Assembly: GCA_025340205.1 (NCBI GenBank)
Contig: CP006868.1
Span: forward strand, 510,001 to 542,000
From: Ignicoccus pacificus DSM 13166
GTDB lineage: Archaea > Thermoproteota > Thermoprotei_A > Sulfolobales > Ignicoccaceae
Length of the DNA stretch: 32,000 nt
Direction: 5' to 3'
Below, in pieces: positions 6,201 through 31,542 of this stretch. A program made the position numbers and the translations under genes. How positions within the stretch are numbered: the first letter of the stretch is position 1; the number at the start of each line of letters is the position of its first letter. The notes beneath the pieces are model-generated. The model searched no databases and was not told the origin of the DNA. It saw only the letters and a program-made list of their open reading frames with translations.

Positions 6201-9200
6201 TGAATCCGTATCTCCATGAAGGATTAACGTTACGTAGCTACCGAACTTCGGAAGAGCTAGGGACGCTGGAACACTATAATCGAAATGTGGACTCTCTAAC
6301 AGCGAGCTGTAGCTATAATCCTCATAAAACTTGATCGCTGTCCCATTGAATATTACTTTAAAGTATCTTGGATAGAGTGGGTTTATCCTCTCACTAACTC
6401 CATATTTCGTTGAAAGAGTTCCATTACCGATGCCGTACTTCAGCACCCAGACGGGTTGTTCTGTCCCAACGTCACTAACGAGAGCGAGACCCACATAGCT
6501 CTTGTAGATGTCCGGAAGGGTCGTGTTGTCTAGATACGTCACGTTGGTCAGTATCAATCCTAAGTCATGATCCCCGCTTCTGGACGTCCCATTGCCCCAT
6601 GCCAATCCCTCTATAACAATAGGATGTGAAGATATGAAGGACGTAGGTATTGGGTTAGAATAGGCTAATGCTGCCTCGTAGCTATACTTGAACGGATTCC
6701 AGCTCACGTTCCACCAATCGTTCCAGTTACCCCAAGCTAGCAGTGCTCCGTCTACGTCATAGTTCGGCGGAGCAGTTAGGGTCTCGTTTCCTCGTAGGAA
6801 TAGCCATTCCCAATTGCCGAGACTTTGAGAGAAGTCGGTGTACATATAAAAGACATCGCTTGGATCCGCTACGTTGCTTGTGTTGGATACGCTTATGTTT
6901 AATATTATTGATTGTTTAGGAGCCAAGTACAGTCTTACCCATATGTAACCGTCACTCCTTGTGTAATCGGTTGTACACGCTCCGCTGAGCGTTTCATAAC
7001 AGAAGCTCACTGAGGTATAGTTAGGACTACTCACGTAGAGTGGTTTTCCTACAAAGGGTGTTTTGATCCTTATTGCCACCCCGTCACTGTAGTCAACGGT
7101 CCCAGCGTTTGTCACGTTAACGATCACGTAGCCACTGTCGGCTTGATCCGCGGGAATTTCCAGATACCCTCCAGCAGGATCGTTAGCTCCTAGAGGGAGA
7201 GAGCCGGGTATAACGGTCTTCTCAACGGCGCTCCTCCCGTAGAGGGAGGTCGTGAAGCTCGGCACTATGACTGTTCCGTAGTCGTACCCCAGAGCAGTCA
7301 ATGGTGGCTCCAAGGTTCTCCATCCCATATCGTTCATGAAGCTATCATAGTAGTAGAACACCTCTCCCGGTTCGCTGGCACCATTCGTACCTACCTTGAC
7401 CAAGAACTTGTTACTCCCACTTGTAAGGTTTGTCTTAATCCATATTGCTACGTCATTTGAAGAAGGAGATGAACTGCAAGCACCGTAGACGCCTAGCTGG
7501 CCCACCACGTTAGCCTCTTCGTAACAGAAGGGTATCTTAGTACCGTTCTCAGTATAGATGCTAATTGGCTTTCCTATGAGCTCTGGGGGGAGCTTTATCC
7601 TGATAATTTGGTCTTGTAAGACGCTAGGTGAGGTCACACTAATATACCAGCTCTTTACTAGTTCAGTTACGTTACTCTCTTCATTCCAGTTTGTGTAAAC
7701 GGGATTACTATCAAGGAACACCTTGACTCCCGTACCGTAAACGTTTAGCTTGAGGAACACTGTACCATTTATCAGAGCGTTAAACGGTATTTTGATAACT
7801 CCGTATGCGTTACTCCCGCTCAGCGCGGGGTCCATGTACTTTATTACGTGATCGGCCGTGATGTTGGTTGAGTCCCCACCATAGCTAGCACCTATCAACG
7901 CCACTGTATCTCCGGGTTTGAATGACGTCGTTGAGTTCGCATAGGGAAGGGAGGCCGGGAAGTAGGTGGGACTATAGGGCTCTAGAGTGCCCGTGTTCGT
8001 GTACAGCAAGTAAGTCATGTTTAGTATTACTGAAGGTACGAAGAGACCCCAGTGGTCACTTAGGCTAAAGGGAGCATTGGAGAGCTTATTACAATCGCTT
8101 CCATAACATATGTAGACTTCCGGTACCATGTTATTATCCTTATCTTGAAGTACGATACTATATCCAAGTGGGTTTCTGAATGTTAAGGAGCTAACATTAG
8201 AGTATATAGTTCCACTAGCCGTAGGATAAGGAACCAAGCTCTGATCGAGCTGAGTTAAGGGACTGATAGCTGGTGTAAAACTCCACTTAACTAACGTCTT
8301 TTGCCCCGTCTCCGGGTTCTCTACCCATGCCATTATACCGTAGATGTACGCACATCTAAATCCTCCAGGTCCACAAGTTTCTTTAAAGAATTCTATTCTT
8401 TTCTGTAAATTAGGGTCGTTCGCGTATACTTCCTTTAAGTAATTTATAGGGAAGCTCTTACCGTCCGCAGCGTCTTCTAGCGCTAATTCGGTAGCGTTGA
8501 CCGGTATGACCACCGGAAAGTCCTTTCTGGTTGTCTGAGACAGCACTTCAAAAGGAATAAAGAACACAGCAGTCCTGCCGTCCGGAGGAGGCGGCGCGTT
8601 TCCGCTGAGGAAGCTGGCCGCAAAGGATATCCACTGAGTCACGCTGAGTCCAGAGACCTTACACGTGCAGTTACATTTACTCGTACTTTGAGTGCCTTGA
8701 AGGATCAAGTTCTGGGCTGACAGGGTGCCCGTCGAGTTCGCTATGGTTAATCTGCATGGCGCTAGAGAAACGGTGCTATCCGGCGTGCTTACCTTCACAT
8801 CTATTACTTTTATCCTCTTAACTACCGGGGTGCTCTGCTGAAGGGCGAACTGTATCAAAGCTATCGCGTACATACCCGTGTTGGTGTTATTGTTTACCGC
8901 TACTTCCCATCCTTCCTTCTCCGCTCCTTCAAGTAAAGTCTGGAATGGTGGTGACCTCTCAGTTGTAGGTAGCAAGAGCTTGAACCCTGCAACTGCGCTC
9001 TTGCCTGTAATCGGATCTATCAAGGCTAATTGACTGAAGGTACTGGTGGGTGTGAGCACTACTTGAGTTATTGTTTTGGCACCGCTTTCGAAAGTTACAT
9101 TTAAGGTAAGTGTTATTGCCACCATTATTGTATCTGGTAGCTTCACCCCGCCTTTGTATATTAAGCTGAGCAAGCTAGCTGAGGGGAGTGCCGGCACTTG

Positions 9201-9422
9201 GACATCTTGCGAGGTACATGCACAAAGCCCACTTGCTAAAAGAGATGCTTGTAAGGCCGCACTCGCTTGACTGTTCGCTTGGATACCCTCCATCCTTACC
9301 TCTTGTTGCCTATTTATGAGGTTGACAACCATCATTATGGCTAAGAATAGTAGGATCATCATTATGAAGGCACCTATGACCATTCCGATTCCTCCGCGGC
9401 GAAGGTTCTGAATCACTCTCAC
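231..9422 (-). CDS. Giant (3063 aa) secreted or cell-surface glycoprotein with a prepilin-like (class III) N-terminus, DUF2341-like modules, L-type-lectin / ConA-like jelly-roll modules and Cys clusters; putative adhesin
   Basis: An uninterrupted 9.2-kb ORF with a GTG start. The N-terminus MRVIQNLRRGG followed by IGMVIGAFIMMILLFLAIMMVV is a charged segment plus Gly plus a roughly 25-aa hydrophobic helix. Dozens of N-x-S/T sequons are present. Lectin hallmarks are EGFAFFF, GYAVEFDY..N, DGKWHSVTIYVD, YWFMGFSATTGS and IDNITL. The gene has its own TATA box and an oligo-T terminator. Confidence 0.9.
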   Translation of the reverse strand: MRVIQNLRRGGIGMVIGAFIMMILLFLAIMMVVNLINRQQEVRMEGIQANSQASAALQASLLASGLCACTSQDVQVPALPSASLLSLIYKGGVKLPDTIMVAITLTLNVTFESGAKTITQVVLTPTSTFSQLALIDPITGKSAVAGFKLLLPTTERSPPFQTLLEGAEKEGWEVAVNNNTNTGMYAIALIQFALQQSTPVVKRIKVIDVKVSTPDSTVSLAPCRLTIANSTGTLSAQNLILQGTQSTSKCNCTCKVSGLSVTQWISFAASFLSGNAPPPPDGRTAVFFIPFEVLSQTTRKDFPVVIPVNATELALEDAADGKSFPINYLKEVYANDPNLQKRIEFFKETCGPGGFRCAYIYGIMAWVENPETGQKTLVKWSFTPAISPLTQLDQSLVPYPTASGTIYSNVSSLTFRNPLGYSIVLQDKDNNMVPEVYICYGSDCNKLSNAPFSLSDHWGLFVPSVILNMTYLLYTNTGTLEPYSPTYFPASLPYANSTTSFKPGDTVALIGASYGGDSTNITADHVIKYMDPALSGSNAYGVIKIPFNALINGTVFLKLNVYGTGVKVFLDSNPVYTNWNEESNVTELVKSWYISVTSPSVLQDQIIRIKLPPELIGKPISIYTENGTKIPFCYEEANVVGQLGVYGACSSSPSSNDVAIWIKTNLTSGSNKFLVKVGTNGASEPGEVFYYYDSFMNDMGWRTLEPPLTALGYDYGTVIVPSFTTSLYGRSAVEKTVIPGSLPLGANDPAGGYLEIPADQADSGYVIVNVTNAGTVDYSDGVAIRIKTPFVGKPLYVSSPNYTSVSFCYETLSGACTTDYTRSDGYIWVRLYLAPKQSIILNISVSNTSNVADPSDVFYMYTDFSQSLGNWEWLFLRGNETLTAPPNYDVDGALLAWGNWNDWWNVSWNPFKYSYEAALAYSNPIPTSFISSHPIVIEGLAWGNGTSRSGDHDLGLILTNVTYLDNTTLPDIYKSYVGLALVSDVGTEQPVWVLKYGIGNGTLSTKYGVSERINPLYPRYFKVIFNGTAIKFYEDYSYSSLLESPHFDYSVPASLALPKFGSYVTLILHGDTDSGATKVGIKWIRIRVYAPTVHLHYIKWPSKILTLGNGLVLEYFSIMPNSPNVVSVGLGNETHEFDAVLNLTGSGSISILRRSFMPSFTSSTIVEGPMQVMIGEWYYNKFTITPMSLQYFVDGPTTAKLGAQLSISPNSVFDKIVVRGDYPYWIDELRIRPLIPFGVEGRFGYELVKTSKTLPIEYSKEIAINVRQGHHVLTIYFHDNIDTGYLIFKFGDGGDGVLSKPLLSSYGYGNAAGWVTVDVPFEVQPGEMIKGGVAIYVKYWPLEMWNELGGVLNGNAPVEVKVPSNYIAPPQGNYTIYYAPLERGCYNATVQDQASCPLTSVNLHGEQPATLLNIPLSENFQEYGNNTLSRGMYNAQAMILSGKWGVLPKSNIYVEDLDSYLKSKDYPILGNDTGDMELMITKGGVYLSEDVMEKLRPQLMDRWVICYDVMLATNGNYSGTSVYRGPGEGMVMSFYKSFNYLPGAGPIMGFFGTGDSSGFGLEIDTKYTPLAQFDGTNDFYLDNEPPAPHFALLYRNMFTNWLPGEVIASNVTNYSYLLNRWHRICVVVEPKEPKLVKGSYYAQEINITAYETDNVTGRIKGIVLQKDFTGQTYSGGEAIGSDILEYFPNGTAVTWSVIVFKSNSSLPALTPVTLSPTVSNGTTSFTLPFSSTLSPVPLSLGNLVRNSTKVSVISSYPITTTPKFSSALSLTTAPNVGVTVFNGPNRSWLFSPSVETTNSYTEYYCYYVHVHNCTCHKRPQYYCEKQKIVQNLQLLPPVYASSNNVIWTGLDTGSSNSTVGLITGTFGVSGQGTIFLQVSGGNSIVVWYQYKPVGGTWGKPVVLLNASVVAKNVPNYLIPLNVKPGKYRIIVLWADTGYPDYVSVDVYNGKGMIPWIVRMFIDKNIKTCDFSVSPLLTPSPANWTLPNVKPGDDVVEMLRPPMENISNYFNNGATWYYTNVYEIANEPSLAVWNITVGNNTFPQIITSLAFNEFVPFINGSLVLNTPQGTVYANGQILEYLYSYPQGIVLPLGSAWFLGSEEAVLPQGIPNPYSYVYYNATVKQFIKAGPYFGLIPTDASYYLLYDSPANAQYYLNYGYDIYVNTLTRIPYSYPLLLGNYSYNGVNYAVGIWQFPLLSGSSFPPPIDLDSATGNTYPVFSVAYSIIKINKPTVLSFTISATNAQEVVVARVYYNETDGTWRFAEKPRVVESGWTYASHQTKRFNVSFDEPGYYIIIIYFENSCKGGGLYVKVNEVNVGSSAGIYIPPSWSIGFTASGNLGPNNVTTLIDNVRICKASPDISTQRLVQMCASANYTDYAKENKIKVLFDDDFNYINNFEVVKNYEPGPEEKTVPSIGIGVIQNVTTGNVYLRLVPDDYDRATVLLIAPKKMNIIRWLTNNKPWAINFKVKVKGTPEGFAFFFYKRFYPMAPNNLSSVWEVRPMGGSALGLLAGPKAGYSPGYAVEFDYVLNNVSSIPGLTLEKGLQVNTGSHVALVKDSPYNHIGYHGVPLANILNDGKWHSVTIYVDPTWAGNCYYDRSPSLTDFSFKTSTATCGGKVLVFIDGKLVLNTTAGSAGFSIPRYWFMGFSATTGSNVAGAVYIDNITLIVPKTSIKDPQKLIALANNSWVKTNGMYLEYVASKDPYDVPPWEREAPTSVNYQLWGVSENGTYIPPGTVGALTTLSYSSLSGASVNNSWPWVTLSILPSNASLQLPSFELYGINYTNVSITPGIGSLVFSNGGANATIAIAESPFDMSRNTTAQYYGWEGAHLATWAQYGYSHGQKWSAIWWDEEGHPNTTYSPWMRGRFGVILYESGDFLLQYDRTDFLFPGANLTDAVGLDSMTIGFKGSTSSGSRASFVILSTAKGTDRGYQQVGLFSDVWSGMDLFNRPKIPKAPDTNLVWQKLPIGNLTVSRNGDYMSVALTTSWDILAQYQGNLYMLIGGAQCINCNSPSVQIAPSPTNSQNSGNCFCSCAQNPLIGEANNVNTINISLTSLTCKMVLYQG
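1419..2270 (-). other. L-type (legume-like) lectin / ConA-like domain, aa ~2385-2668 of the giant protein
   Basis: The ordered motifs PEGFAFFFY, GSALGLL, GYAVEFDYVLNN, GSHVALV, DGKWHSVTIYVD, FMGFSATTGS and YIDNITL match the canonical order of legume-lectin-fold motifs (dGlAFfl, lavEFDt.N, nHvgid, W..v.I.Y, vGFSAsTG). Confidence 0.55.
4503..4925 (-). other. Second ConA-like/lectin-like module, aa ~1500-1640 of the giant protein
   Basis: Motifs MGFFGTGDSSGFGLEIDTKY, DNEPPAPHFALLY and LNRWHRICVVVEP have the same motif logic as the C-terminal lectin-like domain but are more divergent. Confidence 0.4.
6813..7160 (-). repeat. DUF2341-like module, copy 2 (protein-level tandem duplication, aa ~755-870)
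   Basis: The segment GVAIRIKTPFVGKPLYVSSPNYTSVSFCYET...DGYIWVRLYLAPKQSIILNISVSNTSNVADPSDVFYMYTDF is parallel to copy 1. Confidence 0.5.
7323..7670 (-). repeat. DUF2341-like module, copy 1 (aa ~585-700)
   Basis: The segment QIIRIKLPPELIGKPISIYTENGTKIPFCYEE...DVAIWIKTNLTSGSNKFLVKVGTNGASEPGEVFYYYDSF follows the DUF2341 pattern (x.i.v.., dg..lpy.iE.., vWVkv..l.ag.n.fy.yyGn..a......vF). Confidence 0.5.
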
Positions 9423-14973: not shown

Positions 14974-17295
14974 TCACCTCCTGCGATGCCTCCAGATCAT
15001 GTGGAACGCTAGAGGTGCCAACAGAAACGGAGCAGGTACGCACTTACAAATGGCTTCCTCGTTGTTAACCTTGTACACAACCACCTCTCCCTTACTAGCG
15101 GCTAGAACGTAGCCGTTCTTCCAATCCACAGAAACGGGGGCTCCGCTCAAAGAGTCCGTGAACACGAACTTCTTACTTCCCAAGCTATAAATTAACAGTT
15201 TGGTGTTGCTCTCACTTTTAGTGAGGAAGGCAATCGAACTACAATCGGGGGAGAAAGTCATGTCGATTACATTAGTTAAGCTGGGAAGTTCGTACTCTGA
15301 TTGTGTTCCGTTGAAGTAATACAGAACGACTTCTCCCGAGGGATACGCTGCAACCAAATATATTCTGTTAGCAACATCGCTTACTATGGCAGCAGCCGTC
15401 ATCGTTCCTTGAACGTTAAGCGTTTCGCGCTTTGTGCAAAGTGCAAGCTTAGCATCCTCAACCTCGCCTTTAACGCTGTCGTGGGGTGTGAAGGAAACTA
15501 TCGTCTTAACACCATCAAACGCTACTTCCTTCACCTCTATCTTCCCGTTGTCGGCGACAGCTACGTAAGCTGAGGAGAGAGTAGGTAGCGTGTTTGACTT
15601 AGCGAGCTCGTCGTAGTTTATTGGGACGCTGGACGCTATATACTTCCCCGTACCTACGGGGTACGGTTTATAGTAACTGTCCGTGCTGGGGTCATCGAAA
15701 TACACCACGCATCTTTGAGTCCCTTGCGGCGCTGAGGCAGTGTCTGTAAAACACTCGCCCCAAGCGGTGTAGTACTTTACAGAGCCCTTCTCATTTACCT
15801 CAAAAGTACCTATGTAGGTGAAGTCCGTGAGAGATTCAGCGTCAACGTCAGCCTTCCACTGAACGGAGGGTGAGTCTATCAGCTTGACCTCAGTGCCCTT
15901 TAATTGATCATCTATTACTTTATAGACGTAGAACATACCGTTGTAATAACCTATCATGAAACCGCAACCGCATGGACTACTGGATATACCGAAGGGCACT
16001 AAATTAGGGGTGATATAGGAGGATATGCTATTACTTATTTGCGGTACAGCCGATTTGAAGAACGGTTTGTTATCGCCTATCTTGTACACACTCAAGCTAT
16101 CAGCGCCGTTGATGCTAGTGAACGCGTAGAACTTATCGCAACCCAACGACGCTCCAACGATTCCACCAAGGCTCAGCTCGCTTACTCTGCTGAAAGTTGG
16201 TTCAGCTGAGAGTAGGGGTGCGTCGAAGTACTGTACGGGAGGTGGCGTGGAAGTTGTGGTTGTTGTTTGGGGGACTTCTGTTTGTGTTATTACAGTTGTT
16301 TGAATTATTTCTGTCTCTGATGATGTGTTTGATGTTATATTTGGTGGTTGATATCCCTCTACCTTGAGCATAATTACAGTACCATTATTTGTACCGATAG
16401 CTATCCTATCTCTCCACCAAGCTACTGACCAAACATAATCCCCAAATTGTTTCTCCAAAACTTGCCTTCCGGTTGCCACGTCGAAAATATGAATCTTTTT
16501 ATCATTTACATCAGAACTTGCCAAGTATTTACAATCCGGAGAGAAGGCAATATTATACGCTCCTGCGCAACCCCCTCCGTAGCAACTGTTTGCTATTCCA
16601 TCGACACCCCATAACAACCTTGGGTCGTAAGGATAACTTATATCGTAAAGGTAAACGTTGTGAGCTGCTCCAAGAGCAAGGTAATTTCCGCAGACCTGTG
16701 CATCCCAAATTCTTTTAAAGAACTTTATTGTCTTCACTTCTCTTCCATCTGAGAGTTCGAGAATGGTTAGGGCCCCCTCCTCCCAAGAGGGCCAATCCCA
16801 CCTTGGAACATAAACATAATTCCCGTAAACAGCTGGACCGTTGCTAACCCGCTCCAACTTCATCTTCCACTTCTCATTCCCTTTAGGATCAAGGTAAACT
16901 ATATTAGCGTAACCAAGTAGGAAACCGTCCTTAAGCATGCTGATTGCTTGATCGGCATAGTAATCATACCTAACACTTATCTTATCCCATTCTTGCGTTT
17001 CGATATCGTAGATATAGATGTATTCATAGTAGGCAATAAGAGAATTGATAAATCCAAATTTACCACAACAGTATGAAACATCGTTTATCCTTAGACCTTC
17101 ACACTCTTTACTAATCAAGTTTCCATTGGTATCAAAGACATACGCACAACGACCTCCGGAAGCAATCCCTAAATAACCATCATCAGAGAAGGCCAAACCT
17201 CTAACGCTACCTCCGGTCTCATACCTCCAAAGTGGGGCTAACGAGAGAGCCAGTAACCACCCTGAAAGGAGTAAAAACGCTAAAGCAGTCCTCAC
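14974..17295 (-). CDS. Secreted two-lobed beta-propeller (WD40/PQQ-like repeat) surface protein with a Thr-rich linker and a C-terminal membrane anchor
   Basis: The signal peptide is MRTALAFLLLSGWLLALSLAP. Repeated segments of the type G..v..iafSpDg.yla are seen (LAFSDDGYLGIAS, IAFSPDCKYLASS, MTFSPDCSSIAFL). The linker is TSNTSSETEIIQTTVITQTEVPQTTTTTSTPPP. The C-terminus is VPAPFLLAPLAFHMIW followed by RHRRR. Confidence 0.8.
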   Translation of the reverse strand: MRTALAFLLLSGWLLALSLAPLWRYETGGSVRGLAFSDDGYLGIASGGRCAYVFDTNGNLISKECEGLRINDVSYCCGKFGFINSLIAYYEYIYIYDIETQEWDKISVRYDYYADQAISMLKDGFLLGYANIVYLDPKGNEKWKMKLERVSNGPAVYGNYVYVPRWDWPSWEEGALTILELSDGREVKTIKFFKRIWDAQVCGNYLALGAAHNVYLYDISYPYDPRLLWGVDGIANSCYGGGCAGAYNIAFSPDCKYLASSDVNDKKIHIFDVATGRQVLEKQFGDYVWSVAWWRDRIAIGTNNGTVIMLKVEGYQPPNITSNTSSETEIIQTTVITQTEVPQTTTTTSTPPPVQYFDAPLLSAEPTFSRVSELSLGGIVGASLGCDKFYAFTSINGADSLSVYKIGDNKPFFKSAVPQISNSISSYITPNLVPFGISSSPCGCGFMIGYYNGMFYVYKVIDDQLKGTEVKLIDSPSVQWKADVDAESLTDFTYIGTFEVNEKGSVKYYTAWGECFTDTASAPQGTQRCVVYFDDPSTDSYYKPYPVGTGKYIASSVPINYDELAKSNTLPTLSSAYVAVADNGKIEVKEVAFDGVKTIVSFTPHDSVKGEVEDAKLALCTKRETLNVQGTMTAAAIVSDVANRIYLVAAYPSGEVVLYYFNGTQSEYELPSLTNVIDMTFSPDCSSIAFLTKSESNTKLLIYSLGSKKFVFTDSLSGAPVSVDWKNGYVLAASKGEVVVYKVNNEEAICKCVPAPFLLAPLAFHMIWRHRRR
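16238..16348 (-). repeat. Low-complexity Thr/Ser/Pro-rich linker coding segment
   Basis: The plus strand is G/T-rich (ggaagttgtggttgttgtttggggg...), encoding ...QTTTTTSTPPP... on the minus strand. Confidence 0.7.
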
Positions 17296-17744
17296 TTTCT
17301 CCCCACTCTAGATTAGTACGGAAAGACCTTTCTCCTTTTCCTTAGTCAATCCGTCAGTTTTCTAGAGATTAACACAGACGATCGTATTATCACTTCTTCT
17401 ACATTGAAAGCAATATAATATTTGATATCTTTTTAGTCTTAGAAAACTGTCTTACAAAGATCTCTGGAATAACTTAACTATAGTCCAAGCATCTGATATT
17501 CTATAGGCGTTCCTTTGATATAATGTTATCAAATATACTTATCGATAGAACATCAAATAATTGTTAATGAGATTCTTACTGCTTATCTCCACGTACTAAC
17601 ACTTCATTTTCCTAGGATTCTCACAGACTTCTCGAAAATAGATGCGTTCATGCCCAGTCTCTATTAAAAACACCTAAATTTTAATAATCCCAGTCTCTTA
17701 CAGCTCGGCACAAGAAAAGAAAAAGTACAATTACTTAGAGTTTA

Positions 17745-17935
17745 ACTTTTAAGGATCCTTTCAGAAGCCTCCCCGGAAAGTGCCAGAGGGTAATGGCAAG
17801 ACAGCCGCACTGTCAGCACAAGTCCCAGGAGGGCACCTCGAACCTATCGTGTATTGGCTTGCTCACTCGCAACCCTTGAGGTCCCGTTAGGGAAATTGCT
17901 ATATCCTACCCTTCCCTCTCCTGGAAGCGGTGCAA
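17745..17935 (+). other. GC-rich ~190-nt element embedded in AT-rich spacer directly upstream of the ATPase gene; candidate structured RNA or leader. Strand and function are unknown
   Basis: There is a sharp composition switch from the very AT-rich 17296..17744. Nested helices can be drawn by eye: GUGCC 17780-84 with GGCAC 17832-36, GGG 17788-90 with CCC 17824-26, GC 17796-97 with GC 17816-17, GACAG 17800-04 with CUGUC 17810-14, and a second stem CCUCGA 17836-41 with UUGAGG 17876-81. Confidence 0.25.
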
Positions 17936-17938
17936 TGA

Positions 17939-19393
17939 GTGAGTTCAAGGACGTTCGCAGAGATTGAATGGGCTTCCGTGTGTTTTCCTAGTTACGATAA
18001 AAATGGTAATCCAAAGTTAAATCCAGACGAACTAATATGTACCCATTACAAACCAGCTAATGGCAAGTCTATTCCTATAAAGAAGCTTACCGTGCTCTTT
18101 GGCCCCAACAGCACAGGTAAGACGAACTTCCTGCTAACCTTTCACCCCTTCGTTTCTCCTCCTCTTGGCTGTGATGAGATCACCTTAGCCTTATTGAAAC
18201 TATTCTCGGTAGGCTTCGTGAATCTCAAGTGGCCCCTTCCTCTCTTCAGCATCTCAAAGGTGTACATAGATGGTAAGGAGCTATATTTAATGTGGGTGAG
18301 GTTTTCAAAGGATTTATTCCAAAAGGAAAGTGAAATAGAAAAGTTAATCAAAATATTATTTAATAACGACCAAAACAACTCTGTTTTCAAAAGAGTAGAA
18401 GTGAGACAAAATGATCCGGAACTTAACCAAATTTATCAACGTAAAAATGAAATAATTGAGTACATACGAACCGTGCATATACCCAATCAACAGTCAAACA
18501 CAGATCCTATATTCCTCATACCTGGAAGAAATAGAGTTAGAGATAGAATATATACGTTCACCTTCCTCAAGGAAGGTAATAATGTCAAGATTTTGAGCAA
18601 GGGGATCGTATCCGGTTCAGTCAGATGGGAGAGAAGCAACTGCGTGATTCCTCCTATCTCTATTGGATATTCCGGTCCTCACGTTTCATTAGTTAGGACC
18701 GCATCAAGAGGGATCTTCCGTAATTGGAATAAAATAAAGGATCTTATCGATAAGGATGAGAGTTCGATAGTTGACTTCTGTAAGAACGTCCTGAAAAGCA
18801 AGGGCGAGGATTTCTGCATTAAGGAGCTGAAAAGCGGTGAGATGCTTGAATCTACCTTTGGATATGGTTTTGTTCTTGATGATCAAACAACCGTCCCTCT
18901 TTGGAGTATGGGAGATGGATTTAGGGGAGGGGCTGTACAGCTGTCAATACTCGACGCTCTCTCAACTTCTCATAAAATACTAGGGTCACCAAACAAGAAG
19001 CTGTTTGTATTGGATACACCAGAGGCCTTCATGCATCCGGAGCTCGAGGAGTACTTGGCTTCGCAAATAGCCTATGAGGCCTCAAGGACTGAGGATCTTT
19101 ACGTCGCTACGGCGACGCAGAGTATGGAATACTTCATACTTCTATTAAGCAATTTCTTCACATCTTATGGCATTAATGTTGGTGATGAGGACAAAGCAAG
19201 AGAAAGCATTTCCGTCCTATTGTTTGGAAGGCCCGGTACACATCATGGGGAGGATATTGAAGTTAACATAACGGAATTAGAAATAACGAAGAAACAAATC
19301 GAAATGGATTCACCTATCAAAAACGTTTCAAAGCATTTTACTATCCTAGAGTATTTGAACTTGGGAATTGATATACGTTTCCTAAAATATTGA
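17939..19393 (+). CDS. ABC-type ATPase of the AAA_15/AAA_21 (OLD/AriA/AbiLi-like) kind
   Basis: Walker A is LFGPNSTGKTNFL (GPNSTGKT at 18101..18124). A signature-like loop is WSMGDGFRGGAVQLSIL. Walker B is KKLFVLDTPEAFMHPE (19001..). The H-loop position reads LYVATATQS. A long insertion between Walker A and the signature is typical of SMC/OLD-like ABC ATPases. The gene starts with GTG and is AT-rich. Confidence 0.8.
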   Translation: MSSRTFAEIEWASVCFPSYDKNGNPKLNPDELICTHYKPANGKSIPIKKLTVLFGPNSTGKTNFLLTFHPFVSPPLGCDEITLALLKLFSVGFVNLKWPLPLFSISKVYIDGKELYLMWVRFSKDLFQKESEIEKLIKILFNNDQNNSVFKRVEVRQNDPELNQIYQRKNEIIEYIRTVHIPNQQSNTDPIFLIPGRNRVRDRIYTFTFLKEGNNVKILSKGIVSGSVRWERSNCVIPPISIGYSGPHVSLVRTASRGIFRNWNKIKDLIDKDESSIVDFCKNVLKSKGEDFCIKELKSGEMLESTFGYGFVLDDQTTVPLWSMGDGFRGGAVQLSILDALSTSHKILGSPNKKLFVLDTPEAFMHPELEEYLASQIAYEASRTEDLYVATATQSMEYFILLLSNFFTSYGINVGDEDKARESISVLLFGRPGTHHGEDIEVNITELEITKKQIEMDSPIKNVSKHFTILEYLNLGIDIRFLKY

Positions 19394-20466
19394 GAGGTGA
19401 GTGTGTGATGGACGACATAGCTAGGTACGTTTATCTATTTGTACCAGAAGGCGAAACAGATATAGTCACATTGAAAGTTCTCCTATTTTCATTTCTGAAA
19501 AGAAAAGATTTTGAGTGTAATAAAATTTCAAATAATAAAATGGGGGCTTTTCCCTCGTACTTAAGCATAACGAGAGTGTTAAGTGACTTGATGAAAGTTG
19601 CACCAACTAGTTCCCTAATGTTTTCGATCATCAGAAACATGTTGTATTGCAAGTCTGCCCAAAGTAAAAAGGAAGTAATCATAGTAATTCTACAACCTCT
19701 TTATCTATGGGGGAGAGGTTATGAGAGTACAGTAGCACACCTAGTGATGTACCTAAAAAGCGGTATATTACAACACAAATCAGTCCCCAAGAGATCCCTT
19801 GATACGCGCTTTGAGTTAGTAGGGGTTCTGGATATTGATGTCCTTTTACATAAACCTTGGAAGCCTTCACATGAGAAAAACGTCCATAATACCTTATCTG
19901 ATATATTACATAAGGTAGTCGATTCTGATGATAACTTTTACATAAAGGATCTCATTATTCAAGAGATTGAAGGGAAAAGGGTTTCAAGATTGGCCAAATT
20001 GATCTATGAGCCATCTTCTTCAAAACGTTCCTATGCATGGCTCTTGTTATGGGGTTACTGTAAGAACTTTAACTGCCATAAATCTGTAGAAGACATAGAA
20101 GCCGAAATGATAGGAGTAATAGCTAAGCAAAGTCAGGATAATAAGTATCGAGAAAGAGCTTCTCAACTACTTAAAGTTCTCAAACGCAGTCGAGATCCGA
20201 AAGGGAACCAAGGAGGTTGCGGAGGAGGTTGTCTGAGCCCTGTAGGAGGAGGTGCTTCGCTTCGATTGGATCTAATCCTACCTTTACAAACGCTGGCAAT
20301 GAGTTTAGGTGAAAAGCATCCAGTATCTCTATACGATTTTAAGAAATCTAAATTTGCCGGTATGAAACTTAACAAATTCTTGGATTCAATATACGATAAG
20401 GTAATCGAGGACTGTGAGCTGAAAGAGGCCTTAGAGGAGATCTTCAAAGAAGCGCTTCAAGGCTAA
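19390..20466 (+). CDS. Toprim-like (DUF4435/RloB/AriB-like) putative nuclease partner with a novel C-terminal extension
   Basis: The gene overlaps the ATPase stop; the TTG at 19390 is upstream, and the more likely start is the GTG-ATG at 19405/19408. Motifs are YVYLFVPEGETD (Glu at 19447), ELVGVLDIDVLL (DxD at 19831..19839), SYAWLLLWGY (20029..20058) and then GNQGGCGGGCLSPVGGG. Confidence 0.6.
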   Translation: MRGECVMDDIARYVYLFVPEGETDIVTLKVLLFSFLKRKDFECNKISNNKMGAFPSYLSITRVLSDLMKVAPTSSLMFSIIRNMLYCKSAQSKKEVIIVILQPLYLWGRGYESTVAHLVMYLKSGILQHKSVPKRSLDTRFELVGVLDIDVLLHKPWKPSHEKNVHNTLSDILHKVVDSDDNFYIKDLIIQEIEGKRVSRLAKLIYEPSSSKRSYAWLLLWGYCKNFNCHKSVEDIEAEMIGVIAKQSQDNKYRERASQLLKVLKRSRDPKGNQGGCGGGCLSPVGGGASLRLDLILPLQTLAMSLGEKHPVSLYDFKKSKFAGMKLNKFLDSIYDKVIEDCELKEALEEIFKEALQG

Positions 20467-20516
20467 AGGACCTCCTCCCTTTTTGCTTCCCTCCCTCCTC
20501 ACAGCAAGGAGCGAAG

Positions 20517-21272
20517 ATGATAGAGCTGGACGAGATCCTTGAGATCTTAGAAAACAGTTTGGGCCTCAAGGTGGGAGTCGAGGACGGCAAGATTAGGATA
20601 AGCGACGGAAAGGAGGAGGTGCTCGCGGAACCCGGTTACACCTTGCCAGCGATAGCTCTCTTCGTCGAGCCCCGGAAGGCGTGGAGCGTCATAAGAATAC
20701 TCTACGGAGATAAAGCCCAAGCGAAGAAGGCCTACGATGAATACAAGGAACTTCCTTACACCACCTCTGGAAAGGTCTGCTGGCTTCACAAGGCCTTGGC
20801 GAAGGCTGTAAATCAGAGAGTGAAGGGAGCTGACAAGGAAAGGGTACTCACCTGGCTCGAGGACCAAGTCTATAGGAGATGGCCCAACGTCTGCGGGGAG
20901 GCTGACAGCGCTCCAGAGCTGACGAAGCTGGTAACGGAGCTAAACTCCTTAGGCGTATCAGCTTCCATGAACTTAGACAAGAGCGAGGTCGAATTAAAGG
21001 TGAGGAACTATACCTTGAGGCTTCGGAGGAGGTCCCCGCAGTCCCTGAAGCTGATAAAGGAGCTCAGAAAGCTGGCTAAAGAGAATCATGAGATCATCCC
21101 GGACCTAGTGAAGCTTATGTCGGACCCAGCTAGTTGCCTGGACCTTGCCAAGGCTTTGAAGTTAAGGGAAGAATTAAAGAAATATCCAATGATAAGGGAT
21201 AAACTACTGGAAAGCGCTACCGCCCTCGCGGAGAAGATGATTAAGAGAACAAAGACTTTTAGTGAGGACTAA
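20517..21272 (+). CDS. Hypothetical protein (251 aa), helical and charged in the C-terminal half
   Basis: A long ORF with an ATG preceded by GGAG and with codon usage and GC like the flanking core genes. No family was recognised. Confidence 0.6.
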   Translation: MIELDEILEILENSLGLKVGVEDGKIRISDGKEEVLAEPGYTLPAIALFVEPRKAWSVIRILYGDKAQAKKAYDEYKELPYTTSGKVCWLHKALAKAVNQRVKGADKERVLTWLEDQVYRRWPNVCGEADSAPELTKLVTELNSLGVSASMNLDKSEVELKVRNYTLRLRRRSPQSLKLIKELRKLAKENHEIIPDLVKLMSDPASCLDLAKALKLREELKKYPMIRDKLLESATALAEKMIKRTKTFSED

Positions 21273-24290: not shown

Positions 24291-24854
24291 TTGTCCCTCC
24301 TCGAAGAACTCCAAAGGAAAGCTAATGAAGAAAGCAAGTACCCAAACGATCAAGAGTTCTTGGAGAGGAAGGCAATTGATGTAGTTTACGAAATGCTCAA
24401 GGCAAAGGAACTGCTCGAAAAGGGAGATACTAGGAACGCAGCTGGCAAGGCCTTCCAAGCTTGGAAGGATTTGCTTTCATGCTTGATCTGCTTGAACTTG
24501 GATGAGCTGCTGAAGAGGGCGAAGGATGAAAGGGAGAGGAAGTGGATAAGGGAGAAGGCCGTGTTAGTTCCTACAAGCAGAATGGCTAGATTGGCTCAAG
24601 CTCTGGAAGAAATGGGAATAAGGAACGTATCTCCGTGGACGAATACCGCTATCAAGCTTCACTCCTACCAGTACAACGGACCGGATCCGGATGGAATATA
24701 CTTCGCTCCAAGGGATGAGGAGGAAGCTAGGGAGGACATTAAGCTCTTACTCGAAGCTGCTAAGGAGTACTTGGAGAGGTACGTTCTTCCTAACATTAAG
24801 GGAAAGAGCTTGGAGATGATAAGGGAAGGGATGAAGCTATTAGACTTTCCCTAG
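24291..24854 (+). CDS. PaREP1-like helical-bundle protein
   Basis: AKELLEKGDTRNAAGKAFQAWKDLLSCL and ...TNTAIKLHSYQYNG resemble the PaREP1 pattern (LEEGD..qAseKlWgAa..avKa ... LH.nFYe). The start is TTG and uncertain. Confidence 0.5.
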   Translation: MSLLEELQRKANEESKYPNDQEFLERKAIDVVYEMLKAKELLEKGDTRNAAGKAFQAWKDLLSCLICLNLDELLKRAKDERERKWIREKAVLVPTSRMARLAQALEEMGIRNVSPWTNTAIKLHSYQYNGPDPDGIYFAPRDEEEAREDIKLLLEAAKEYLERYVLPNIKGKSLEMIREGMKLLDFP

Positions 24855-25598
24855 GACGTACTTCTCCGTGAGCTCGTGCTTCGGTCTCGTAAATATCTCA
24901 CTGGTAGGTCCTACCTCCACGACCTTTCCGTCGTAGATGAAGGCCACGTAGTCGCTAATCCTTGCAGCTTGTTGAGGGTTGTGGGTGACTATGAGTACGG
25001 TGAACTCCTTCTTGAGCTCAACGATGTTCTCCTCTATCCTCTTCGTGGATACCACGTCTAGGGCTGAGGTGGGCTCGTCCATTAGCAATACCTTTGGCTT
25101 TAGCGCTATGGCCCTTGCTATACAAAGTCTCTGCTGCTGACCTCCGGAAAGCCTTCCGGCCTTCCTCTTGAGATCGTCCTTCACCTCGTCCCAAAGGTAA
25201 GCCCTTTTTAGAGACCATTCTACTAGCCTCTCAAGCTCTTCCTTACTCTTTACCATCTTGTGCATCTTGGGCCCAATTGCAACATTATCAAATATACTCA
25301 TATGAGGAAATGGGTTGGGCCTCTGGAAGACCATTCCAACCATCTTCCTAAGCTCATGGGGATCCATCTGGTAGACGTCTCTCCCTTCTAGCAATATCTT
25401 GCCCTCCACCTCCACGTCTGGGTACAAGTCCCAGAGTCTGTTGATAGCCCTTAACAGAGTGCTCTTTCCCGAGCCCGAGGGTCCCATTATGGCGAATATC
25501 GATCCTCTGGGAACCTCTAAGTCTATTCCCTTGAGTATTTCCTTACCGCTGATCTTCACCTTTAGTTTTTCTATCTTTAGTATTATGTCAGAACTCAT
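24840..25598 (-). CDS. pstB: Phosphate ABC transporter ATP-binding protein
   Basis: Motifs are GPSGSGKSTLLRAINR, the PstB-typical DLYPDVEVEGKILLEGRDVY and VGMVFQRPNPFP, LSGGQQQRLCIARA, LLMDEPTSALD and VTHN. It lies downstream of pstC and pstA. Confidence 0.93.
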   Translation of the reverse strand: MSSDIILKIEKLKVKISGKEILKGIDLEVPRGSIFAIMGPSGSGKSTLLRAINRLWDLYPDVEVEGKILLEGRDVYQMDPHELRKMVGMVFQRPNPFPHMSIFDNVAIGPKMHKMVKSKEELERLVEWSLKRAYLWDEVKDDLKRKAGRLSGGQQQRLCIARAIALKPKVLLMDEPTSALDVVSTKRIEENIVELKKEFTVLIVTHNPQQAARISDYVAFIYDGKVVEVGPTSEIFTRPKHELTEKYVLGKV

Positions 25599-28126: not shown

Positions 28127-29197
28127 TCATCCCCTCCAGCAAGCCCCTCTAACCTTCAACGTGAAGGGTTCCCCTATCTTCCCCTCGAGCTCCAGCTCCG
28201 CCTCCGGCAATATCTTCTTCACTACGTGGACGTGAGTCCAGGCGTGCATAGTCAGCTTGGCCCCTCCCACCTCCGCCTCTCCGCAAGACAGGGCTAAGTA
28301 AGGGATTATCATGTCGCTCATGTGTCTGTCCAACGCTTTCTTCGTGGATAAGTCTTCAATCAGCTTCGTCGCTGCCTCCTCCCCGACCTTCTCCGCCGGC
28401 TTCCCCCTAGCTCCCAAGGAATCTCCTCCGAGCAAACTCCTCTCCGCTATCGCCCACAGCACTATTCCGCTCCCAGGACCCAAGTGAGGATCCCTTTCCC
28501 TAGGGTACCATTCCAAGTCTATTTGGACGTTCTCGTAACCGCTTCTCTTTAAGAGCTCCTCCGCTGCCCTCGCTTGCCTCTCCGCCACGTGCTTGGGAAG
28601 TCTGACGCAGTGGGAGAGACCCCTTATCTTGATCACCTCTCCTCTCTCCAGCTCCCCCCAAGGTCTGAGCATCCTAGGAGGGGATGGAACCTCGAACTCG
28701 ACTATCCCTCCTCCCTTTGGGTAGTGTCCTCTTCTCTTTAAGATAATGTTAATATCAGCCCCGAATTTGCTCAAGATGGGCTCAAACACGAAGCGGAGAT
28801 AGTCTATGGGAGGGCTCATCGGTACGTCCGTCCCTCCTCTCAACCACACCTTCACTGGTTCTGGGGCGAATAAGGCAGCTGGCGTTATCGCTTGGATTAC
28901 CAAGCTAACGCTTCCAGCGGTTCCTATGTCGAACCTATAATTGCCTCCTTTCAACCTCTTAGGGATAAACACCAATTCCTTGGAACCGACCTCAAGTCCC
29001 TTTACCTCCGCATCCGTCATCTCCGCCAACGCCTTAACTGCTGTGAAGTGCTGCCTCCTGAGACCGGGGTTCTTTCTTTTAGCCCTAATATTGAATATTC
29101 TGACTGGTCTTAAGGTGACAGCTGAGAGGGCTATGGAGGTCCTCAGTATTTGTCCTCCCCCTTCTCCGAAGGAGCCATCAATTTCTATGATCTTCAA
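28127..29197 (-). CDS. rtcA: RNA 3'-terminal phosphate cyclase
   Basis: The N-terminus [47 protein letters not shown] is the RtcA signature. Also present are [12 protein letters not shown] and [15 protein letters not shown] (the catalytic His region). Confidence 0.92.
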
Positions 29198-30930: not shown

Positions 30931-31542
30931 ATGGCTCTTCTGACTTTCAAAAACGTTGCTAAGAGGTACCTCTACGACTACGTAATTAAAGACTTCAACT
31001 TGGAGGTGGGGTATAGCGAAGTGGTGAGGCTCGAGGGACCTAACGGCTCCGGAAAGACTACCCTGCTGAAGCTCGCTGCTGGAATAGAAAGGCCGAGCGA
31101 GGGAGAGGTTCTGATCGAGGAACTCCCTCCGTGGCATCTAGAGAGCAAGAGGAAGATGGGAGTTGTAATGCACAATAACATGACTTATGCAGAGCTTACG
31201 GTAAGGGAGAACTTAGAATTCTTCGCTTCCCTTTATGGTGTTAATCTAGACGAAGCGATGAGGTTGAGCAAAGAAGTAGGTCTCGATAAAAGGATGGAAC
31301 AAAGGGCAGGGGAGCTGAGCTTCGGGTGGAGGAAGAGGTTAGAGCTGGTCAGAGCCCTAATGCACAATCCCAAGCTGATACTCCTCGACGAGCCCTTCGT
31401 AGGCCTCGATACTCCGGGTAAGGAAGCATTGCTCAAGCTACTAAGGGAAGCCTTGAGGAAGGGATCCACTGTGGTTTACACGGCTCCGGTTGGATCCGAG
31501 GGGAGGGTAAGCGAGGAAGAAAAAGTAGTTAGGTTAGTATAG
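30931..31542 (+). CDS. Short ABC transporter ATP-binding protein (CcmA/ABC-2-like, 203 aa)
   Basis: Walker A is GPNGSGKTTLLKLAAG. The signature variant is LSFGWRKRLELVRA. Walker B is LILLDEPFVGLD. The H-loop position reads VVYTAP, with no His. Confidence 0.8.
   Translation: MALLTFKNVAKRYLYDYVIKDFNLEVGYSEVVRLEGPNGSGKTTLLKLAAGIERPSEGEVLIEELPPWHLESKRKMGVVMHNNMTYAELTVRENLEFFASLYGVNLDEAMRLSKEVGLDKRMEQRAGELSFGWRKRLELVRALMHNPKLILLDEPFVGLDTPGKEALLKLLREALRKGSTVVYTAPVGSEGRVSEEEKVVRLV

Follow-up and report, generated by a model that had tools for sequence, protein, structure and literature searches.

A probable antiviral two-gene module with a degenerate ABC ATPase and an orphan putative effector in Ignicoccus pacificus

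Introduction

Does the form of immunity in which an ATP-binding cassette (ABC) ATPase is paired with a nuclease have a version fixed in hyperthermophiles, and how far might such a version depart from the known systems in its partner protein and in its catalytic site? To our knowledge, nearly all experiments on immunity of this kind (OLD, Gabija, PARIS, AbiL, Septu) come from mesophilic bacteria. The question is raised by two adjacent genes, IPA_02990 (gene 1) and IPA_02995 (gene 2), followed by IPA_03000 (gene 3), in a stretch of 32,000 nucleotides from Ignicoccus pacificus DSM 13166 (the window). An original prediction had read the first two as a split-OLD or PARIS/AbiL-like module, with gene 1 as an AAA_15/21-type ATPase and gene 2 as a Toprim protein of the DUF4435 or RloB type. 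The analysis described here supports this in part: the class of the ATPase and the conservation of the pair stand, whereas a DUF4435 or RloB identity for the partner does not. The pair is probably a very rare antiviral module, with a putative nuclease role for gene 2.

A conserved pair in two genomes

When 1.84 billion cluster representatives (~15 billion proteins) are searched exhaustively with phmmer, the product of gene 2 has a single homologue, P0003 (347 aa, 34% identity, E = 7.5e-38). It is encoded on a 37.9-kb contig (L068) of assembly GCA_054016835.1, where a gap of 10 nt separates its gene from that of the gene-1 homologue (L068:8698-9990, 430 aa, 27% identity, E = 3e-39); the two are co-directional and in the same order as in I. 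pacificus. Since each gene has a homologue in another genome, both are real genes rather than chance open reading frames (ORFs). The co-occurrence of homologues that the original prediction had put forward as a check is thus found in the only other genome with either gene. There the pair stands beside a type III-B CRISPR cluster (Cas10/Cmr2, RAMPs), which lies directly upstream on the opposite strand, and a Macro-domain gene and an N6/N4 DNA methyltransferase gene lie downstream. The organism can be taken as a hyperthermophile because the contig carries reverse gyrase (554 bits, above cutoff). Word-indexed homology searches, run with each of the two genes and with the gene-2 alignment, gave self matches and P0003 only. 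No further members came from metagenome or viral contigs scanned with the ATPase alignment, from viral contigs scanned with that of gene 2, or from tblastn searches for gene 2 in plasmids and for gene 1 in phages.

In both genomes the pair is foreign in composition. The AT-rich islet proposed earlier for I. pacificus is seen as a GC content of 0.38-0.41 over about 16500-20500 of the window, against 0.48-0.54 in the flanks; GC content at third codon positions (GC3) is 0.43 in gene 1 and 0.36 in gene 2, against 0.60-0.66 in the genes for ArgRS, P5C reductase, permeases and gene 3. The L068 pair, together with a 211-aa ORF, likewise occupies a low-GC patch (GC3 0.47-0.58 vs 0.73-0.84 in neighbours). 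No integrase lies near the I. pacificus pair, as had been stated, and domain searches found neither integrase nor transposase domains in any window ORF of at least 100 aa. A pair that is conserved, extremely rare, horizontally mobile and, at one of the two loci that make up the sample, placed within a defence neighbourhood fits a defence system.

The two genes are clearly operonic. Gene 1 and both L068 genes are preceded, at a distance of 6-8 nt, by sequences resembling a Shine-Dalgarno (SD) site, GGTG(A), and the presence of such a sequence before every start is consistent with an operon. For gene 2, the ATG at 19408 (352 aa) appears to be the more likely start. The N-terminus of P0003 aligns there, to M7 of the 358-aa ORF, and an SD-like site precedes this codon, so that a 14-nt gap between the genes is more likely than a 4-nt overlap, which exists only with the TTG start at 19390. 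The translational coupling originally suggested by that overlap is correspondingly weak.

A defence-type ATPase with a degenerate nucleotide site

The motifs of gene 1 follow one another in the order of ABC ATPases (GPNSTGKT, MGDGFR, VLD359), all of them kept in the homologue, and about 260 aa are inserted between Walker A and the signature motif; the ORFs and motifs quoted in the original prediction lie where it had placed them (Table 1). In the signature region, W322, G325, D326, G327 and R329 are invariant. The C-terminal motifs were aligned with those of the homologue, two AriA proteins from metagenome loci and one RloB-partner ATPase. In that alignment the signature loop (MGDGFR vs LSSGER) and the Walker B Asp of gene 1 are in register with AriA, and hhalign puts the Walker A region of gene 1 on the AriA P-loop.

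Profile searches point to the same class. Pfam AAA_21 matches residues 50-382 of gene 1 (E = 1.1e-7, 32.7 bits, cutoff 27), and AAA_15 matches under its 32.1-bit cutoff (E = 0.0023, 18.1 bits). The rule by which PARIS ATPases have been detected asks for at least 32 bits to AAA_15 or at least 27 bits to AAA_21 (Rousset et al. 2022, PMC9122126), and gene 1 passes it by AAA_21. Two AriA models of PADLOC match at 1.6e-8 and 1.9e-7, the latter nearly over its full length (gene 1 residues 43-378, positions 17-353 of a 373-position profile); NsnB (5.6e-8), Old (2.8e-6), HEC-01A (7e-6) and AbiLi (2e-5) follow, with weak matches to mad3/8 and GajA. PHROGs phrog_4747, a 610-aa profile, matches at 6e-7. 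For the L068 homologue, AAA_21 reaches 34.0 bits and passes its cutoff, and PADLOC returns AriA, AriAB, ATPase-Toprim_I-B, AbiLi and PDC-M38A, with PtuA among weak matches and JetC (9e-4) at the P-loop level only. ABC_tran, SMC_N, RecF and RecN gave no match to gene 1 in Pfam or NCBIfam at E ≤ 1, so that the alternative placement in SMC, RecF or RecN clades, raised at the outset as a check, finds no profile match behind it. Searches of the PDB with phmmer and hmmsearch, using both proteins and both alignments, returned nothing relevant. Taken together, the lack of a transporter profile, the insertion of about 260 aa and the full-length AriA-type match support the assignment of gene 1 as a defence-type AAA_21/AAA_15 ABC ATPase, in agreement with the class first proposed.

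What the original prediction had missed is that the Walker B motif of gene 1 lacks the catalytic Glu. The residue after the Walker B Asp is T360 in gene 1 and E393, the catalytic Glu, in AriA; both family members have D-T, whereas the two AriA proteins and the RloB-partner ATPase have D-E. The H-loop reads T-Q-S in both family members, as against T-H-S in AriA and T-H-N in the RloB-partner ATPase. Degenerate ABC sites are marked by the absence of the catalytic Walker B Glu (PMC7544095), and the E393A substitution served as the ATPase-defective mutant of AriA in the PARIS structure paper (PMC11464382). Because D-T and T-Q-S are identical in a homologue that shares just 27% identity, they speak for selection rather than decay. 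The nucleotide site retains the P-loop, the signature loop and the Walker B Asp, but the catalytic Glu is exchanged for Thr and the switch His for Gln; gene 1 is therefore predicted to bind ATP and dimerise but to hydrolyse ATP poorly.

The motifs also bear on the extent of the gene. The NCBI annotation of IPA_02990 has 377 aa and starts at about V108, leaving out Walker A (region 17939-18260). The 484-aa form is probably correct and the annotation too short, since the longer protein includes the P-loop and matches the homologue right from its N-terminus.

A partner protein with Toprim-like motifs

The N-terminal alpha/beta region of gene 2 carries acidic motifs that resemble those of Toprim proteins; after it come a Gly-rich linker that is not conserved (about residues 270-292) and a conserved C-terminal helical region (GEKHPxSL, CELxEAL). 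In the Toprim fold, a conserved Glu ends strand 1 and a DxD motif ends strand 3 of a Rossmann-like core (Aravind et al. 1998, as cited in PMC11464382). The candidate Glu motif of gene 2 closes the segment YVYLFVPEGETD (residues 13-24), and the candidate DxD motif follows a second hydrophobic strand. E20, D148 and D150, the residues nominated in the original prediction, are all invariant in P0003, and the surroundings of DxD are conserved as well (V144, G145, V146, D148, I149, D150 and V151 invariant). At an overall identity of 32-34%, gene 2 and P0003 have 7 of the 21 Asp and 9 of the 22 Glu in common, which gives a chance of about 0.02 that all four acidic residues (E20, D24, D148, D150) would be kept.

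The combination is also rare. A scan for an N-terminal hhhEGxx[DE] followed 35-170 residues on by hhhDxD found the pattern in none of 1619 background ORFs of at least 120 aa from 67 unrelated loci, and found it in gene 2, P0003, two of three AriB seeds and all five RloB seeds. Against the AriB metal-site residues used for comparison (E26, D30, D88, E90, E122), the sole hhalign local alignment between the gene-2 and AriB families (residues 16-35 vs 22-41) is not significant (E = 0.14); it sets E20 on AriB E26 and D24 on AriB D30, both metal-site residues of AriB (PMC11464382). A control with true homologues, AriB vs RloB, aligns the same segment only, at E = 0.015 with thin profiles. D148 and D150 are plausible equivalents of AriB D88 and E90, a pairing made by no alignment method. 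Secondary structure from a low-confidence AlphaFold2 model has strands before both acidic motifs and helices after them, and the relatives of the ATPase fall mostly in families that pair or fuse with Toprim partners. A Toprim-like site in gene 2 is a hypothesis at the level of motifs, and the nuclease assignment is putative. Of the motif order originally read as Toprim, the EGxxD and DxD parts are present and invariant, and the third is not convincing: SYAWLLLWGY (residues 214-223) has no acidic residue in its AWLLLWG core, and its Trp is Tyr in P0003.

Weighing the explanations

The best explanation, which we hold with about even confidence, is a horizontally acquired two-gene operon of PARIS/AbiL/split-OLD-like type with an antiviral or abortive-infection role, in which gene 2 would be a Toprim-like nuclease effector. 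It brings together the ATPase class, the degenerate motifs, the conservation of the pair, the foreign composition in both genomes, the one defence neighbourhood and the invariance of the acidic motifs. From these we infer that gene 2 has a Toprim fold and acts as a nuclease, that the effector is sequestered and then released, and that the module has a trigger and an antiviral role. In such a system gene 1, ATP-bound and poor in hydrolysis, would act as a sensor or scaffold that keeps gene 2 inactive, and E20/D24 with D148/D150 of gene 2 would form a Toprim-like two-metal site. A viral cue sensed by the ATPase would release or activate gene 2, which would then cut nucleic acid (tRNA or DNA) and so arrest the infected cell. 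A bolder version, which we consider rather doubtful, is an immune module restricted to hyperthermophiles in which a soluble ABC ATPase without hydrolysis serves purely as an ATP-binding switch or sensor and controls an effector without detectable relatives, either a divergent, insertion-bearing Toprim or a new nuclease fold, and which may be linked to type III CRISPR in one host.

A number of results weigh against the best explanation, and most of them concern gene 2. Several of these favour a defence or abortive-infection module with an ABC ATPase and an effector that is not a Toprim protein but has a new fold or uses DxD in the manner of a phosphatase or nucleotidyltransferase, with EGxxD in another role such as an ATPase-binding interface; we regard this as unlikely, though a serious contender. 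Neither gene 2 nor P0003 matches Pfam or PADLOC at E ≤ 10 or the sequences of the PDB, gene 2 has no NCBIfam match at E ≤ 1, and PHROGs gives chance-level values only (E = 0.06 and 0.91 for gene 2 and P0003). No significant similarity of either protein to Toprim, DUF4435, RloB, DUF3226 or OLD-TOPRIM profiles was found, the very result that the original prediction had set against its own placement of gene 2 in a Toprim family, and gene 2 without its putative insertion (residues 40-92) still has no Pfam match. The controls, by comparison, were detected by PADLOC: AriB of B185 and of O42 match AriB models at 4.7e-9 and 1.4e-15 (AriB also matches PDC-M38B and HEC-01B). An RloB seed matches OLD-like_TOPRIM (4.9e-5), RloB (4.4e-3) and AbiLii (7e-5), as well as GajA, ATPase-Toprim_I-B and mad4. 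Gene 2 is therefore not a DUF4435 or RloB member. Thin hidden Markov models (HMMs) built from 6 AriB and 5 RloB sequences and ranked over 1618 sequences leave it within the background, at about 96th-99th over the two HMMs (about 96th with the RloB HMM); P0003 is 161st with the AriB HMM and not listed with the RloB HMM. Scans of viral and metagenome contigs seeded with AriB and RloB yielded only 3 and 11 close relatives, and with the thin profiles made from them neither hhalign nor the HMMs reached significance; in E. coli genomes, the P4-satellite hotspots that were sampled for DUF4435 or RloB members held other systems. The spacing from Glu to DxD is 128 aa in gene 2, about twice the 50-62 aa or so of AriB and RloB, so that a Toprim reading has to assume some 70 inserted aa; the alignment of gene 2 and P0003 shows no clear third acidic motif to match AriB E122, and the missing acidic residue and variable Trp of AWLLLWG count the same way. 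The conserved QxxYxxGxGY, KPxKPxHxKN and GEKHPxSL motifs have no counterpart in AriB or RloB, and AlphaFold2 with a two-sequence alignment gave an unusable model of gene 2 (predicted local distance difference test, pLDDT, 37). The PtuA match of the gene-1 homologue leans in the same direction: PtuA of Septu pairs with an HNH protein, that is, a non-Toprim effector for this class of ATPase. Against an effector of another kind stand the two invariant motifs, in the right order after hydrophobic strands and in no background ORF, the fall of the sole hhalign alignment to AriB on its catalytic Glu motif, and the Toprim partners of most ATPase relatives. The missing profile matches are moreover weak evidence in the Toprim superfamily, because the validated AriB of E. 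coli B185 itself has no Pfam DUF4435 match by hmmscan and reaches only DUF3226, at E = 0.03. Two specific readings of DxD, as a HAD phosphatase (DxDxV) or a Pol-beta nucleotidyltransferase, were set aside by alignment inspection only, since EGxxD is present, the GS/GDxxxD companion motifs are missing and the position in the protein does not fit. A Foldseek search with the pLDDT-37 model gave Rab GTPases (E ~0.1, TM 0.16) and was disregarded.

The remaining points against an antiviral Toprim module concern the pair as a whole. The co-occurrence of gene 1 and gene 2 rests on one additional locus, and that locus is the only one with a defence context; the neighbours in I. pacificus are housekeeping and transporter genes, and the window contains no CRISPR loci, no integrases and no genes for defence. 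AAA_21 alone is not diagnostic of a defence ATPase, because ordinary transporter ATPases of the window score similarly or better (48 bits at 24840-25598 on the minus strand and 30.7 bits at 30931-31542 on the plus strand), and AlphaFold2 modelled gene 1 alone at a pLDDT of only 34. A cassette that is not immune at all, whether a selfish addiction or toxin-antitoxin-like element or one with another role such as nucleic-acid maintenance, moving among hyperthermophiles, finds support in the neighbourhood in I. pacificus and in a defence context seen at one locus only. It would also suit a hydrolysis-dead ATPase, which is unusual among known defence ATPases, and the label of AAA_21 in Pfam, which names AbiEii/type IV toxin-antitoxin toxin. 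We judge it improbable: the closest profile matches are all to defence ATPases, adjacency to type III-B CRISPR, extreme rarity and foreign composition in both genomes are together typical of defence genes, and addiction and defence roles can in any case coexist. That the genes are decaying remnants of a former module, or that gene 1 is an accessory ATPase of the neighbouring ABC peptide transporter, seems very improbable. The truncated NCBI annotation without a P-loop, the lost catalytic residues and the ABC permease genes 2 kb downstream could be taken in that sense, but both ORFs are intact, with 484 and 358 codons in AT-rich DNA, and the retention of D-T, T-Q-S and all other motifs at only 27-34% identity indicates selection. 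As for a transporter, gene 1 has no ABC_tran match, its 260-aa insert is absent from transporter nucleotide-binding domains, its composition is unlike that of the transporter genes, transporter-type ATPases are encoded elsewhere in the window, and the L068 homologue is not beside any transporter.

Relation to known systems

Set beside PARIS (AriA/AriB; E. coli B185/O42; PDB 8UX9, 8V46), the module has the ATPase first and an effector of the same size range second (~300-350 aa in PARIS). Its genes are adjacent and co-directional at both loci, with a gap of 14 nt (or a 4-nt overlap) in the window and 10 nt in L068. The AriA models are the best and the only full-length PADLOC matches of gene 1, which also passes the ATPase part of the PARIS rule; features of the effector are hhhEGxxD near its N-terminus and, farther on, an acidic hhhDx[DE], and the genes are mobile and foreign in composition. 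The partner differs: PARIS requires DUF4435 (PF14491, at least 27 bits) or the PADLOC AriB model, and gene 2 and P0003 match neither, with a motif spacing in gene 2 of 128 aa vs 62 aa and no 'SxEN' motif of the E122 type. AriA hydrolyses ATP, whereas gene 1 has T360 and Q394 at the positions of E393 and the H-loop His. The host differs as well, being a hyperthermophilic archaeon. PARIS is further defined by its activation through viral anti-restriction proteins and by the cutting of tRNA by an AriB dimer once released. That these systems were characterised only in bacteria, as the original prediction had it, needs qualification, since computational detection had earlier turned up PARIS-type pairs in genomes of archaea (PMC9122126).

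AbiL (an AbiLi AAA_15/21 ATPase with the RloB-family AbiLii) and the 'AAA_15/AAA_21 | RloB' arrangement of the E. coli P2 hotspot share the split into an ATPase and a small Toprim-like partner. Gene 1 and its homologue match PADLOC AbiLi weakly, at about 2e-5, and the RloB-type partners start with hhhVEGxxE/D and carry hhhDxD, the same motif order as in gene 2. Gene 2, however, has no match to RloB (PF13707), AbiLii or OLD-like_TOPRIM; it is twice their length (358 aa vs about 170-200 aa) and has a C-terminal domain and a further insertion, and it mirrors the 'FELWLLLHF'-type motif only loosely, with no Glu and a Trp that is not conserved.

OLD (P2 Old, Class 1/2) and GajA of Gabija share their ATPase superfamily with gene 1 and likewise carry an insertion that separates Walker A from the signature, as the Old match and the weak GajA match of gene 1 reflect, and in concept they too are ABC ATPases that control a Toprim nuclease. 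They are single polypeptides with a fused Toprim domain and a canonical D-E, whereas here there are two ORFs in both genomes, no OLD-like_TOPRIM match and a degenerate ATPase site in gene 1. For the site itself, the nearest likeness is to the degenerate sites of heterodimeric ABC exporters (TAP1, ABCB11-type), in which the Walker B Glu is lost and the switch His replaced, TAP1 being an Asp/Gln example. In those exporters, one of the two sites of a transporter heterodimer is affected, whereas gene 1, as a soluble and presumably homo-oligomeric ATPase, would have degenerate sites only.

The module would work most like PARIS or AbiL, and it departs from both in its partner protein and in its catalytic ATPase site. 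The novelty lies in an orphan family of effectors, in a degenerate ATPase site that is fixed, and in an occurrence limited to two genomes of hyperthermophiles; an archaeal host by itself is not new.

The genomic neighbourhood

The features discussed above are collected in Table 1. Gene 3 has no family matches in Pfam, PADLOC or NCBIfam. The original prediction had left it as either an unrelated neighbour or a third component; the second possibility was rejected on its native GC3, its lack of similarity to the L068 neighbours and its lack of synteny with permease homologues elsewhere, and gene 3 is an unrelated native neighbour. A scan of genome contigs with the neighbouring permease, aimed at synteny, found only relatives of at most 46% identity, no Ignicoccus among them. 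The 211-aa orphan ORF of L068 has no family matches. It has no counterpart in the I. pacificus window and was rejected as a conserved third component, although it may still be a third member of the module in L068 itself.

The long non-coding region upstream of gene 1 presumably holds the promoter and a 5' leader, and may represent a long leader or a gene remnant. It contains no ORF of at least 40 aa and has no similarity to the L068 locus; against Rfam it gave a single chance-level match to the long non-coding RNA MEG3_2 (E = 0.75; 17.6 bits, where the gathering score is 60). Its GC-rich part was rejected as a non-coding RNA, with no meaningful Rfam match and unremarkable folding z-scores. Over the whole window no tRNA genes and no Rfam families at gathering thresholds were found, and between 16500 and 21500 no direct or inverted repeats flank the pair above chance.

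The low-GC zone is wider than the pair, because two further ORFs are AT-richer than the core genes. One is a giant ORF of 3063 aa (231-9422, minus strand; GC3 0.53) whose sole match is DUF2341, and the other encodes a 773-aa WD40/beta-propeller-like protein with a signal-peptide-like N-terminus (14974-17295, minus strand; GC3 0.47). Farther downstream lie a gene of the PaREP1/PaREP8 family (24291-24854, plus strand; Pfam E = 1.5e-22), flanked by two ABC-transporter gene sets, and, about 8 kb from the pair, a gene for the RNA 3'-terminal phosphate cyclase RtcA (28127-29197, minus strand; Pfam RTC E = 3e-80), probably an unrelated housekeeping gene.

Table 1. Coordinates of the features discussed (window positions unless marked L068)
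Feature	Position	Strand	Remarks
Non-coding region upstream of gene 1	17296..17938		643 bp, unusually long; AT-rich part, then GC-rich ~190 nt (17745-17935)
Gene 1 (IPA_02990)	17939..19393	+	484 aa, GTG start; divergent AAA_21/AAA_15 (AriA/OLD/AbiLi-like) ABC ATPase
Walker A/P-loop GPNSTGKT	18101..18124	+	Residues 55-62; G55, N57, G60, K61 invariant in homologue
Signature-like loop SMGDGFRGG	18905..18931	+	Residues 323-331; counterpart of AriA LSSGERQ
Walker B region LFVLDTPEAFMHPE	19001..19042	+	Residues 355-368; D359 then T360
H-loop T393-Q394-S395	19115..19123	+	Gln in place of switch His
Gene 2 (IPA_02995)	19390..20466	+	358 aa from TTG 19390; orphan partner, putative effector
SD-like GAGGTGA	19394..19400	+	7 nt upstream of ATG 19408
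Candidate Toprim Glu motif E20-G21-E22-T23-D24	19447..19461	+	After hydrophobic strand YVYLFVP; E20, G21, T23, D24 invariant
Candidate Toprim DxD motif D148-I149-D150	19831..19839	+	After hydrophobic strand ELVGVL; LDID = residues 147-150
Gene 3 (IPA_03000)	20517..21272	+	251 aa; native GC3 0.655
211-aa orphan ORF	L068 8034-8669	+	GC3 0.47; 28 nt upstream of ATPase homologue; divergent from cmr operon

Implications

Two results are of immediate practical use: the truncated annotation of IPA_02990 is corrected, and current defence-finder models are shown to miss the module, the PADLOC models in present use not detecting the pair of gene 1 and gene 2. Only two members of the effector family are known in some 15 billion proteins, and the family could represent a strongly diverged Toprim or a nuclease of a new kind. 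Gene 1, which lacks two hydrolysis residues, would test whether ATP binding alone suffices for sensing and effector release; in PARIS, the drop in ATP turnover caused by the trigger already hints at sensing by binding alone. As a version fixed in hyperthermophiles, the module would widen the family of immune systems built from an ABC ATPase and a nuclease.

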